48,119 bases of DNA from a virus (IMGVR_UViG_643348551_000006:1-48119), one strand, 5' to 3'. Positions 2,203 to 32,341 are shown, counted from the stretch's first letter. Translations and numbers: made by a program. The notes: generated from the letters alone by a model not told the origin.

Positions 2203-3975
2203 CTAATAAACCCGGATAAATAGACCAATCATGATGCCATCAGAACCCGCACTCCCCAGCCGTGAGCCCGACAACGCCCGGTATGTCCCCGAAAACGCAC
2301 CGCCTGCATACACAGAAATATCGCTGGTTTGTTGAATCGCGGGGTAGTCTGTTATCCCGACACACTTAAACTCAATAATCATAAGACGTGAGCCGGGATA
2401 CAGGTCACCACGATTTATCTGACGATTTGAATCTGAGCTGTAAGTTCCCTTGTACCCCGCCAGTACAAGACTGCCAATACCGTATCCGTCATATGTCGTT
2501 CCGGGGGTAATCCCGGACAGCGTAGCGACAACGGACGACGGCGTGTATTTCAGGGATTCCCACTCCATCAGTTTGCCAGTGGGCGAGTACCAATTCACAT
2601 GAACGCCACCATTAACACCGTAGAAAATAATATTTTTAGGTTGTTTTTCTGCTTCACCACTGGTATCGGCACTCGTCCAGATGACGTCCACAACACCAAT
2701 AAATAGTTCCCCCTCTATTACGACCCCGTTTTCCGGCCTCGTACTCACGGCATAACGTCCGGGGAGAGCGTTTTTTGCCCACGAGAGGAACATTGACCCT
2801 GACTGAAAATACACTCTGTCTTTGACAGTAAATATTTTCCCGAATCCGGACATGCCGGGGACAGCAAGACGACCGTCTGTGCAGTCGTAAATATCTGCCT
2901 GTGGTTCCATCGTGGCCGCGCTTTTTAGCCCCAGATTATCACGTGACTCCTGTTGTGCTTGTTCACCTGCTGCCGCAATCTCTGACAGATTACCGGACGT
3001 TTTCAGGGTGTTCGCCAGCAGGACATCAATGTCGTTTTTTGCCTGCTCAGCTGCGCGGGCATAACCTGCGGCTACCCGTGCGCTCTGTTCAGATGAGGCC
3101 GCGCTTTCCCCCGCACTTTTCACATCTTCCGCAGTGGCCTTTCTGTCACAGGCTGTGGCCGTTGCATCCTGTCTGGCGTTCTCCGCAAAGCGCTCAGCAT
3201 CATCACGTGCTGCTGCGGTTGCCGTCACATCCTGTGCGGTCTGCAGTGTGTTTCCTGCAACATTATCGGCGTGACTTTTCGCGTTTTGCGCACTTCGGGC
3301 TGCATTATCAGCGTGACTTTTTGCGCTCTGTTCGCTTCGGGCAGCGTTATCCGCATTGTTTTTTGATTCCTCTGCGCTGGATGCAGAATCATCTGCTGCC
3401 TGTTGAGCCTGCTTTACTGCATCTGTAACACTCTGCACACCCTGTTGCATCTGTCCAGCATTCTGCTCAACTTCTGCAGCCAGATGTTCAACGTGTTGTT
3501 TATCTTCGGCAACCGCGGTGGCGTTCAGCTGTACGTTATCCGCCAGCGTCTGACAGTCTTCCTTTATCTTCTGCGCATCAGCGACATGTTGCCCGGCCTG
3601 TTGTTCGCTTTCCGCTGCGGATTCGGCGCTCTGCTGCGCCTGTGCCACCATTCTCTCAAAGCGTTTCACCACGTCGGGTTTGAGGTCGCCTTCATCGGGA
3701 GCGGTCAGAAAGTCGTTCAGCGTGCCGGGCTTTGCGTCATCGTATACAGCAATGTCGCCAACACAGTACTCGTCGCGCCAGCCCTGTTTCAGATACACGC
3801 GATATTTTCCGGTCCGGGCCTCAAACGAATACTCCCCGTTATTTCCGGTCACCACATCAGCTTCAGTGCGCATCACCACTTCTGATGTGTTCACCCGGGA
3901 TTTCAGAATAATGTGGCATCCGGACATGGGGATGCCTGCGCCATCAGTCAGCGCACCATAAATTAAAACGGACAT
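2203..3975 (-). CDS. stf: Side tail fibre protein (Stf-like); start placed at internal Met MSVLIYGALTDG
   Basis: N-terminus MSVLIYGALTDGAG...GTLNDFL shared with the upstream fibre and with lambda Stf; repeated ADNAARSxQxAKSH units; C-terminal receptor-binding region of the kind that needs Tfa. Confidence 0.85.
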   Translation of the reverse strand: MSVLIYGALTDGAGIPMSGCHIILKSRVNTSEVVMRTEADVVTGNNGEYSFEARTGKYRVYLKQGWRDEYCVGDIAVYDDAKPGTLNDFLTAPDEGDLKPDVVKRFERMVAQAQQSAESAAESEQQAGQHVADAQKIKEDCQTLADNVQLNATAVAEDKQHVEHLAAEVEQNAGQMQQGVQSVTDAVKQAQQAADDSASSAEESKNNADNAARSEQSAKSHADNAARSAQNAKSHADNVAGNTLQTAQDVTATAAARDDAERFAENARQDATATACDRKATAEDVKSAGESAASSEQSARVAAGYARAAEQAKNDIDVLLANTLKTSGNLSEIAAAGEQAQQESRDNLGLKSAATMEPQADIYDCTDGRLAVPGMSGFGKIFTVKDRVYFQSGSMFLSWAKNALPGRYAVSTRPENGVVIEGELFIGVVDVIWTSADTSGEAEKQPKNIIFYGVNGGVHVNWYSPTGKLMEWESLKYTPSSVVATLSGITPGTTYDGYGIGSLVLAGYKGTYSSDSNRQINRGDLYPGSRLMIIEFKCVGITDYPAIQQTSDISVYAGGAFSGTYRALSGSRLGSAGSDGIMIGLFIRVY

Positions 3976-30628: not shown

Positions 30629-30704
<76 letters not shown>

Positions 30705-30835
30705 TTTTATTGCCACATCCGTAACAACAGTCGACAGGAATAATATACATTCAGAATCAGCCGCCTTAGCTAATTGTGCAACCATCTGCTCTTTGCAAGT
30801 GCACTTAACGTCCTGCGCCACTTTTCAGGCATAAA

Positions 30836-30900
30836 AAAACCCGCTCAGTGGCGGGATCTTTTGATAAAAACGACAAAGGCACCATTAAGGTGCCTTTTAC
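30836..30900 (-). terminator. Tandem terminator hairpins (minus strand)
   Basis: GGCACC-TTAAT-GGTGCC then TTTGTCGTTTTT, then CCCGCCACTGAGCGGG then TTTTTTT. The second hairpin is a near-identical copy of the terminator at 31553..31585. Confidence 0.5.
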
Positions 30901-30974
30901 ACAGGGGCAGCAGGCTTGTCATCACCTCATCGCTACTCCTGGCTTCCTGTTCGGAAGTCTCACAAGTCCCATCA

Positions 30975-31010
30975 GGGTACAGCGACAGTATCAGCCAACA
31001 CACTATGTGT
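30975..31010 (-). promoter_or_regulatory. Sigma70-like promoter candidate (TTGACA - 17 nt - GATACT) about 110 nt upstream of the tandem terminators
   Basis: Perfect -35 hexamer and 4/6 -10 on the minus strand; function unverified. Confidence 0.35.
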
Positions 31011-31014
31011 GTCA

Positions 31015-31050
31015 ATATAAATTCATATCGAATTCGATAATCGTTTTCGA
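31015..31050. repeat. Cluster of nested perfect palindromes (TATCGAATTCGATA / TCGATAATCG-TTTT-CGATTATCGA / TATCGATA) just downstream of the MazF-like stop
   Basis: Read directly from the sequence; candidate operator or hairpin. Confidence 0.6.
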
Positions 31051-31452
31051 TTATCGATACAGATAAGCCATCCCTATCCCGTGCAATACCGCCCGTTTAA
31101 TATTCTCAAACTCATCTTCCGCAATCATAGGAACAATATAATTTCGTCCCTCCCAGGTTCTGGTTTTTATGCGATCCAGTCGGCTCAATGAAACCGTCAT
31201 CAACATGTCACATTTTACCCAGCAAGTAATATGCTCATTACCAGGTATGGGGTTTTCTGATAACTCATGATGGCAATCTCTGCGAGGGAGCGGTTCAGTA
31301 GTGCTTATTGGTACCACTGTTACCAATTGATTGTTGTGCCTGTTTCTGGACACGACCACCACTGGCCTGATCTTGACTATTTCCGGAACAACCATTCCCC
31401 GAAAATCACACATTAAAACAGAACGAACAGACGGCTGATACTTTAATACCAT
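31051..31452 (-). CDS. MazF/PemK-family endoribonuclease-like protein (toxin homologue) with no adjacent antitoxin gene; start at MVLKYQPS
   Basis: MVLKYQPSVRSVLMCDFRG...KIRPVVVVS...LVTVVPISTT...CWVKCDMLMTVSLSRLD aligns with MazF (MVSRYVPDMGDLIWVDFDP...HRPAVVLS...) and Kid/PemK (TRPVLIVT...LPVVVPVTSG...VVRCDQPRTID). The track ORF extends 26 codons further upstream. Confidence 0.7.
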   Translation of the reverse strand: MVLKYQPSVRSVLMCDFRGMVVPEIVKIRPVVVVSRNRHNNQLVTVVPISTTEPLPRRDCHHELSENPIPGNEHITCWVKCDMLMTVSLSRLDRIKTRTWEGRNYIVPMIAEDEFENIKRAVLHGIGMAYLYR

Positions 31453-31552
31453 AAATCTCTTTGCCTGATAATGACGACTTGTGAACTCCACTACAAACAA
31501 AATGATTCTGCTGAACAGGCAGTTTCGCACTATACATTATAACCTGTTAAGC

Positions 31553-31585
31553 CAACAAAAAAACCCGCTCGGCGGCGGGATTTGC
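31553..31585 (-). terminator. tR'-like rho-independent terminator about 65 nt downstream of the putative Q stop
   Basis: Minus strand CCCGCCGCCGAGCGGG followed by TTTTTTTG. Confidence 0.5.
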
Positions 31586-31632
31586 TTACTTTGCCATCGA
31601 GTACAAAATCGGCAAAATATCAGATTTGCACG

Positions 31633-31661: not shown

Positions 31662-32341
31662 ACACTTTGCTTTGAAAATGCCGTCTTTTGTTCTGAACGT
31701 GTTCTCATCACAAACAATAAAGCCTCACTATCCAGCCGGTGGAAAATGTGTTTCATTGCAACCCAGTGACCAGTAAATGTTTTGGACCAGTTTTTAGTTG
31801 TCACTCCCGCCAGTAATGCCAGTTCCTGATATTCATAAGTTTCACGCCCAGCTAGCTCACTCTTCACATCCTGTGCCGCCAGCCAGATTAATTTTTTCAG
31901 GCGCTCCCGTGTTTTCTCCGCAATTTTTCTGGTACCAGATTGCGCGTTAAATTCATTCCACGCCCACTGTGTTATCGCAATCTGGTGTTCCCAGCAAATG
32001 CTGCCGCTGTAACACCACAGCAACCAGGCTTTATGGTGTTCTTCAAGAGACAGAACCGCCCGTCGCCATGATGATGTCGAAAACTCAACCTGACTTACCA
32101 GAGGAATTGACGTCTTCTTTGCCAGCGATTGTTTCCCCGGGATTGGTGGATTATCCAGCGTGATCATTTTTCCGGTCACTTCATCGCGGTACCGGATTTT
32201 TTTACGCCTGTAACGCCCGGTATCAAACATGGCATTCTCCTGCCAGGCTTCAAGCTGACCTTTTGTTGCTCCACTCAAATCGGCGGTGGCGATAATGAGC
32301 TGTTCACGCACAAACTGTAAATACTGGTTATTCATGCGCAC
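31646..32341 (-). CDS. Putative late-gene antiterminator Q (assigned by position between rusA and the PR'/tR'-like elements)
   Basis: 231 aa; no motif recognised by eye. Call rests on the conserved lambdoid order rusA - Q - PR' - lysis. Confidence 0.45.
   Translation of the reverse strand: MRMNNQYLQFVREQLIIATADLSGATKGQLEAWQENAMFDTGRYRRKKIRYRDEVTGKMITLDNPPIPGKQSLAKKTSIPLVSQVEFSTSSWRRAVLSLEEHHKAWLLWCYSGSICWEHQIAITQWAWNEFNAQSGTRKIAEKTRERLKKLIWLAAQDVKSELAGRETYEYQELALLAGVTTKNWSKTFTGHWVAMKHIFHRLDSEALLFVMRTRSEQKTAFSKQSVAKVD

Follow-up and report, generated by a model that had tools for sequence, protein, structure and literature searches.

In the type III toxin–antitoxin (TA) systems ToxIN, CptIN and TenpIN, an endoribonuclease-type toxin is encoded together with a cis-encoded non-coding RNA and without a protein antitoxin; the order is promoter, RNA, intrinsic terminator, toxin gene. 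The type III antitoxins described so far are all built of tandem repeats, and the fold of ToxN is related to that of Kid/MazF. RalR/RalA and SymE/SymR are type I systems, in which enzyme toxins are paired with trans-acting small RNA (sRNA) antitoxins, while the type II systems MazEF and PemIK have a MazE/PemI-type antitoxin gene next to the toxin gene. A pemK RNA motif, which is in Rfam, was reportedly described by Weinberg et al. in 2017 upstream of pemK genes in Firmicutes. Here we analyse a stretch of 48,119 nucleotides (nt) (IMGVR_UViG_643348551_000006:1-48119; the window), a lambdoid prophage of E. coli with its late genes on the minus strand, in which a structured sRNA of ~115 nt lies downstream of a yifN-type MazF/PemK-like gene. 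On balance we favour the view that this RNA is the antitoxin of the YifN endoribonuclease, acting mainly in a type III-like way and possibly by antisense pairing as well.

With the type III systems the locus shares an endoribonuclease-type toxin, recognised here from sequence and fold, a cis-encoded non-coding RNA, the lack of a protein antitoxin and residence in mobile elements. The type III gene order itself is found in distant YifN relatives; in the window the RNA stands downstream of yifN instead, as it does in most loci, and has a promoter of its own. We do not file the cassette as a type III member, because its RNA has no tandem repeats and its toxin is not of the ToxN type, and at most it would work like these systems, by analogy. 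With RalR/RalA and SymE/SymR it has in common an sRNA beside a non-peptide toxin gene, a short complementarity to the toxin mRNA and a prophage location. However, this complementarity covers 8–11 nt in the 5' leader and occurs in some clades only, the RNA lies on the same strand as yifN without overlapping it, and its tertiary-looking architecture is conserved across phyla. Type I membership fails because YifN is a soluble MazF-fold protein of 133 amino acids (aa) and not a small hydrophobic peptide. The MazF fold and the equivalents of the catalytic Arg and Thr connect YifN with MazEF and PemIK, but the likeness in sequence is marginal and a MazE/PemI-type gene does not adjoin it; as there is no protein antitoxin, type II membership fails too. 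In the PR'–6S RNA–tR' leader of lambdoid phages, too, a promoter located between Q and the lysis genes gives a short terminated transcript, but the sRNA unit is evolutionarily separate and is parted from Q by tR' and yifN; since it exists without Q, it does not belong to the PR'/tR' class. Like the pemK RNA motif, finally, it is a structured RNA associated with pemK-family genes, yet in the window, as in 8 divergent loci, the RNA body is not covered at E ≤ 1 by any Rfam 15 family, the pemK motif included. The sole Rfam match near the RNA, an isrK-like one over the terminators, is sub-threshold, scoring 17.9 bits where the gathering score is 50.

The protein partner is encoded as follows.

31051–31452, minus strand: yifN-type MazF/PemK-like gene, 133 aa plus stop, stop codon at 31053–31051, Pfam PemK_toxin

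YifN matches Pfam PemK_toxin (PF02452) with an E value of 6.5e-14; sources name its family 'YifN (PemK superfamily)', and NCBI labels the gene 'type II PemK/MazF family toxin'. The AlphaFold model has a predicted local distance difference test (pLDDT) score of 91.6, and its top 50 matches in the PDB are all MazF, with template modelling (TM) scores of 0.66–0.81. In alignment with E. coli MazF, the invariant Arg29 and the conserved S50-T-T52 motif of YifN fall on the catalytic Arg29 and the Thr52 region. Compared by sequence, the match to solved MazF structures is marginal (E ~0.1), as is the only match in NCBIfam, also to MazF, and PADLOC gives no match for YifN. By its modelled fold and its catalytic Arg and Thr equivalents, YifN belongs to the MazF/PemK superfamily, and its own family comprises 782 clusters at 50% identity (E ≤ 1e-10). 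The start codon is ATG 31452, according to the family alignment, the homologue in locus L008 and the N-terminal homology with MazF. RefSeq annotation by the Prokaryotic Genome Annotation Pipeline (PGAP) calls a PemK gene of 345 nt (L001 3706–4050); the supported start lies 57 nt farther upstream. A co-oriented open reading frame (ORF) adjoining yifN is present neither in the window nor in Pseudomonas and Alteromonas, where both neighbours of yifN are on the opposite strand, and in the window the distance from tR' to the yifN start is just 110 nt. In the contexts examined, yifN is thus a solo toxin-type gene without an adjacent protein antitoxin.

Downstream of yifN, the sRNA unit consists of the following elements.

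30987–31015, minus strand: sigma-70 promoter of the sRNA, with −35 TTGACA (31015–31010), a 17-nt spacer and −10 GATACT (30992–30987)
30866–30980, minus strand: structured sRNA, ~115 nt, covariance model R1, 93.4 bits, E ~1e-19
30977–30975 with 30970–30968, minus strand: helix P1
30967–30958, minus strand: single-stranded linker ACUUGUGAGA
30957–30953 with 30947–30943, minus strand: helix P2, the hairpin CTTCC-gaaca-GGAAG at 30957–30943
30941–30932 with 30911–30902, minus strand: helix P3, with an inner helix 30926–30924 with 30915–30913
30923–30916, minus strand: P3 loop GAUGACAA
30897–30889 with 30883–30875, minus strand: helix P4, which is terminator A, its arms followed by GTCGTTTTT
30874–30866, minus strand: tail GUCGUUUUU
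30833–30855, minus strand: terminator B, CCCGC-cactga-GCGGG (30855–30840) followed by T7, beyond the conserved RNA

A preliminary description of the region had already proposed the promoter, the CTTCC-gaaca-GGAAG hairpin, two consecutive terminators and, as one option, an independent sRNA of ~110 nt. All of these hold: the hairpin is P2 of an RNA family, the first terminator is its P4, the second lies outside the family, and the sRNA has a covarying body of four helices. The link to the adjacent PemK/MazF-like gene was not part of that description.

The family was modelled with R1, a covariance model of 114 positions and 28 pairs made from 18 diverse sequences with a manually derived structure, which gives a single match in the window, 30980–30866 on the minus strand. 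In an alignment of 94 homologues, which was itself fitted to the covariance model, standard pairs fill 97.1% of the pair cells, against 77.7% in shuffles and 36–55% with slid partners, compensatory two-sided changes are found in 26 of the 28 pairs, and the covariation score is 0.547, against 0.18 for shuffles and 0.06–0.10 for slid partners. RNAalifold yields the same 28 pairs. The predicted transcripts of 115 and 148 nt fold with z scores of −4.4 and −4.6, and none of 200 shuffles is as stable. Common to the family are a P1 of the form CCC-GAAA-GGG, the invariant linker RCUUGYRAGA, a variable P2 that is branched in Pseudomonas, a P3 with an inner 3-bp helix closing the near-invariant loop GAUGACAA, the junction GUGAA, a GC-rich P4 and the invariant tail UUUGUC. 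The unpaired nucleotides are near-invariant across phyla as well, and Tandem Repeats Finder reports zero repeats in 30780–31600. The family is a widespread and strongly covarying one, absent from Rfam 15 and apparently undescribed. The loop is complementary to the RNA's own tail, with 92% of cells able to pair, and compensatory changes occur in five cells only, too few to prove pairing. A pseudoknot between CUUGU of the linker and ACAAG of the loop was rejected, as it lacks covariation and does no better than slid controls.

Two possible reading frames within the unit were discarded. The first, a small ORF within the RNA (ATG ACA AGC CTG...), has its ATG in the conserved loop, and its downstream frame and length differ by lineage (25, 19 and 11 aa); in the second, a mini-ORF ATG-AGG-TGA after AGGAG, the ATG is replaced by ATA in sister copies. 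Some RefSeq genomes annotate a 65-aa 'hypothetical protein' over the RNA and its terminators (L002 4176–4373, corresponding to about 30925–30730 of the window), which is probably a spurious ORF over a non-coding RNA.

The occurrence of the RNA was followed by protein-guided retrieval of genome loci, with at least 80 species-level loci among the matches listed, and in 80 viral loci at 36–99% identity. The listed genome loci include Pseudomonas, Caulobacteraceae, Neisseria, Pasteurellaceae, Oxalobacteraceae, Cupriavidus and Geobacteraceae, together with metagenome-assembled genomes assigned to Anaerolineales and Cytophagales. A regular expression alone finds the RNA adjoining yifN in 89 distinct sequences. 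With R1 at E ≤ 1e-3 the RNA adjoins yifN in 74 of the 80 listed genome loci, and five of the other six give weak adjacent matches when filters are off. At E ≤ 1 it is present in 73 of 84 sources (the 80 viral loci, the window and 3 E. coli loci), down to ~40% protein identity. The RNA is also present in non-phage chromosomal loci that have no Q gene in their vicinity, among them loci of Pseudomonas, Caulobacteraceae and Neisseria. A 17-mer of the transcript leads to viral contigs with a PemK-like gene of 75–76% protein identity. Behind the gene, these sister cassettes carry an unrelated spacer, then a TTGACT-17-AATACT promoter, an RNA homologue whose stems are compensated, and a second terminator unrelated in sequence.

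Among 5426 E. coli genomes, yifN is found in 23, always with the RNA, and the RNA is found in 36; orphan RNAs were thus seen in this collection, and an orphan yifN was not. The region is matched in 37 E. coli genomes, with the 3' end of the PemK gene, palindromes, promoter and transcript together in 23 of them, and homology among these genomes stops ~28 nt past terminator B. The 321-nt stretch around the unit (30780–31100) is 100% identical to strain EC21Z-048. In E. coli K-12 MG1655 a truncated remnant of the RNA lies 3' of the pseudogene yifN b3777 (L185 3905–3956, minus strand; 16 bits, E = 0.004); it consists of P1, the linker and a single terminator hairpin, the latter with a UUUUGCCAU tail, and P3 with its loop is missing.

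In most loci the RNA lies 1–100 nt 3' of yifN and ends in a terminator. In distant relatives the order is flipped to promoter, RNA, terminator, 10–15 nt, Shine–Dalgarno (SD) sequence and yifN, and the loop differs, reading GAUUCCAA, GACACCAA or GAUGUCAA. RNA and terminator directly upstream of a yifN relative were located at four places, and weak matches to an upstream RNA were seen at ~2880–2990 in L095, L098, L099, L103 and L105.

L157 2353–2475: RNA and terminator upstream of the yifN relative
L161 2333–2485: RNA and terminator upstream of the yifN relative
L164 2377–2498: RNA and terminator upstream of the yifN relative
L167 2404–2502: RNA and terminator upstream of the yifN relative

The promoter of the sRNA matches the consensus at 10 of 12 positions and is the top of 8 sites in a 3-kb scan, in which shuffles give 4.1 ± 2.4 sites. 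More importantly, it is kept in register with the RNA. Of 89 distinct loci, 91% have a hexamer resembling a −10 (A at position 2, T at position 6) 6 nt 5' of the first G of the RNA, compared with 15% of control positions, and a combined −35/−10 score of at least 8 out of 12 is reached in 64% of these loci and in 0.6% of controls. The spacer sequences vary from clade to clade. In Neisseria, Caulobacteraceae and Pasteurellaceae the RNA starts 1–14 nt past the stop codon, so that its promoter lies inside the yifN coding sequence. A promoter conserved in register makes the RNA an independently transcribed gene, and because there is usually no terminator between it and yifN, the RNA at the same time forms the 3' end of the yifN mRNA. 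That the features of the unit exceed chance follows mainly from the conservation, with covariation, of promoter, helices and terminator A in ~90 homologous loci. Terminator B probably shields the downstream lysis genes from the strong sRNA promoter. In the enteric prophage sister cassettes a second terminator stands at the equivalent place and is unrelated in sequence between lineages, and this arrangement is consistent with insulation of the lysis genes from a constitutive promoter, the U-tract of the promoter's own terminator being interrupted.

We favour the RNA as an antitoxin because of its near-universal linkage to yifN, its strong separate promoter, the flipped, type III-like order in distant relatives and the orphan asymmetry in E. 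coli; in addition, that the unpaired nucleotides hardly vary across phyla speaks for recognition by the conserved protein. In the mechanism that we propose, the sigma-70 promoter would start transcription at about G30980 and the ~115-nt transcript would fold into P1–P4, with P4 and the tail UUUGUCGUUUUU acting as its own terminator. RNA and yifN would form a self-contained two-gene cassette, in which the RNA would be made in excess from its own promoter and would also be carried at the 3' end of read-through yifN mRNA. The toxin would then be neutralised by direct binding through the invariant single-stranded elements of the RNA, as in type III systems, and in several clades the loop GAUGACAA may additionally pair with UUGUCAUC in the yifN 5' leader, in a type I-like manner. 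The toxicity of YifN, its neutralisation by the RNA and the mode of this neutralisation are what we infer; the RNA family, its structure, its promoter and its linkage to yifN are observed.

Several points weigh against an antitoxin of this kind. The RNA is a single-copy, four-helix molecule of ~115 nt without the tandem repeats of every described type III antitoxin, and YifN is a member of the MazF/PemK superfamily and not a ToxN, CptN or TenpN protein. The loop–leader duplex of the window is weak (−12.1 kcal/mol in RNAduplex, p = 0.14), and complementarity between loop and leader is absent in many clades. The pair counts come from an alignment fitted to the model that they describe, and the sampling of enteric genomes is limited, these being covered through viral contigs and the E. 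coli genome collection. Finally, a description of the RNA or of its pairing with YifN was not found in the literature, exact sequence strings included, in a search of partial coverage, so that an earlier description is possible.

The pairing of the loop with the yifN leader could also be the whole mechanism. The site in question lies just upstream of the gene.

31466–31476, minus strand: site CGUCAUUAUCA in the yifN 5' leader, candidate antisense target, partly complementary (with G·U pairs) to the P3 loop

A purely antisense, type I-like RNA would repress yifN translation or destabilise the mRNA by pairing of the loop GAUGACAA with the 5' leader, and no binding to the protein would take place. 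This is unlikely in our view, even though the complementarity is striking in some lineages. In the enteric sister cassettes, with the site UUGUCAUCACC, the duplex reaches −18.7 to −20.8 kcal/mol, in Neisseria, with the site CUGUCAUCGUC, −19.6 kcal/mol and in L141 −15.4 kcal/mol, each with p ~0.003; the match of 8–11 nt is perfect or near-perfect and sits 25–29 nt 5' of the yifN start codon. Strong complementarity is seen in some Pseudomonas loci too, and between the enteric and the Neisseria lineages a U:A pair of loop and leader has changed together to C:G. However, Caulobacteraceae and most Pseudomonas loci show no complementarity, the window shows little, and the leader site is clear of both the SD sequence and the start codon. 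Moreover, antisense pairing does not need a loop and other single strands that are near-invariant across phyla.

A bolder proposal, which we regard as a long shot, is that YifN and the RNA form an unrecognised class in which a MazF-fold nuclease would be under the control of a single-copy structured sRNA. The loop GAUGACAA would serve as a sensor or guide for UUGU sites, with which it would pair in the tail of the RNA, in the toxin mRNA and perhaps also in phage RNAs; the cassette would be an abortive-infection switch of the prophage, and orphan RNAs (L003, L004, L006, L009 and others) would be decoys by which rival prophages disarm it, comparable to the pseudo-ToxI of phage PhiTE. Should the proposed control of YifN by the RNA hold, an RNA partner would be assigned to one large solo clade (782 clusters), antitoxins made of RNA would reach past repeat arrays and past ToxN-type toxins, the catalogue of RNA families would gain a new and strongly covarying member, and RNA-decoy warfare among temperate phages would become directly testable. 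Genome annotation could also be corrected if the proposal holds, because the genes are now labelled type II toxins and their start codon is set too far downstream.

The RNA might, alternatively, be a substrate, cofactor or sensor of YifN, the two forming a ribonucleoprotein with another role such as RNA processing, phage sensing or abortive infection. The tight linkage, the constant orientation and the invariant loops would suit such a partnership, as would the position of the cassette in the moron region of a prophage, where defence genes are common. We nevertheless hold it to be improbable: orphan RNAs in the absence of orphan toxins, together with a strong separate promoter, suit an antidote better, and PADLOC gives no match.

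Some RNA copies stand without yifN and without the promoter, most of them in the late leaders of other lambdoid prophages.

L003 2498–2612: orphan RNA copy
L004 2528–2641: orphan RNA copy
L005 2490–2600: orphan RNA copy
L006, L009, L018 and L023: orphan RNA copies

The S19-651-type prophages (L004, L006) carry the transcript body behind Q, PR' and tR' and lack the PemK gene, the palindromes and the −35; the junction reads ...cagcagaatcat|agagtgttgactGATACT.... In L003 (Z1323CEC0011) the body begins at the transcription start, behind a different Q gene and its small terminator, and a tRNA-Arg/Thr/Gly array is intact on its 3' side. L005 (strain A34) carries an 80%-identical copy with compensatory stem changes in yet another context. 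The promoter is lost in L003, L005 and the L004 type alike. A second, partial copy in L005, comprising P4 and the tail, lies ~180 nt upstream of the first. These loci were at first read as the resident state, a late leader into which a PemK moron had been inserted to create a hybrid promoter. This reading was abandoned: cassettes of 65–80% identity keep the order of gene, promoter and RNA, so that the PemK-less loci, which have no −35 and resemble the outcome of deletions between CAT microhomologies, are more plausibly explained by loss of sequence.

The orphans also bear on the idea that the yifN mRNA simply ends here, in a passive 3' region made of stabilising hairpins and tandem terminators without any function in trans. 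The distance of 1–100 nt to the gene in most loci and the terminator at the end are what such a 3' end would look like. Its own promoter stands in register in 91% of loci, however, sequence conservation extends to its unpaired nucleotides, distant relatives have the RNA 5' of the gene, and orphan copies are kept where the gene is gone, all of which leaves this idea very little room.

The surroundings of the cassette in the window are those of a lambdoid late region. On the minus strand, a DUF968 gene, RusA, Q, the PemK/MazF-like gene and the sRNA unit follow each other, and behind the unit come a tRNA remnant, a TerB-like gene, holins and an M15 endolysin. The YifN–RNA cassette is here a moron (accessory gene insert) between Q/tR' and the lysis genes. 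Next to it are the Q gene and a promoter-like site with terminator.

32341–31646, minus strand: Q gene, PF06323
31564–31662, minus strand: Q-proximal late promoter-like site TTGCAA, 17 nt, TATATT, with a terminator at 31579–31564, outside the cassette

The Q-proximal unit has a predicted leader RNA of ~65 nt and a sub-threshold likeness to the Salmonella Gifsy sRNAs isrJ and isrK (21 and 19.5 bits).

Two promoter–terminator units in series, as the preliminary description had stated, are thus indeed present, and the genuine Q-proximal pair is the one at 31662–31564. That description had also considered the sRNA unit to be a further late-promoter module of the PR'/qut/tR' kind or to mark a mosaic junction, and the palindromes to be bound by a dimeric regulator or Q. 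In favour of this, the RNA body comes shortly after Q and tR' in the PemK-less L004 and L006 and in L003, homology breaks at the −35 or the transcription start, and the palindromes are statistically unusual. Even so, it is barely credible, since the same promoter and RNA occur in Q-less chromosomal loci of many phyla, the PemK-less loci without a −35 resemble deletions between CAT microhomologies, and the palindromes are absent from sister cassettes and variable within their lineage.

The three nested perfect palindromes themselves are present as described, at 31026–31059, where they overlap the yifN stop codon (31053–31051).

31026–31039: palindrome TATCGAATTCGATA
31034–31057: palindrome TCGATAATCG-N4-CGATTATCGA, 10+4+10, found in 0 of 100 shuffles
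31052–31059: palindrome TATCGATA

They are confined to the E. coli lineage of the cassette: in cassettes of 65–80% identity the promoter and the RNA are kept and the palindromes are absent, so that they do not qualify as conserved regulator sites. Even within the lineage they vary. In L013/L110, 13 nt between ATCGA repeats are deleted, and in L021/L107 the 4-nt loop is flipped from AAAA to TTTT. Such variants suggest a DNA instability driven by hairpins or slippage. The palindromes are not a defining part of the system and may be an mRNA 3' hairpin or a local operator.

The tRNA remnant behind the unit (30629–30704, minus strand) is a chimeric pseudo-tRNA. ARAGORN does not call it, and the Rfam tRNA model covers it at model positions 8–63 only. 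A BLAST search against a phage collection gave as sole matches the tRNA-Gly piece and terminator B. In the pseudo-tRNA, the 5' half of a tRNA-Arg(TCG) is joined to the 3' half of a tRNA-Gly(TCC) at a shared cagcctt (30676–30670); the acceptor stem is broken, and the tRNA-Thr has been deleted, unlike in L003, where the Arg-Thr-Gly array is intact (2774–3006).
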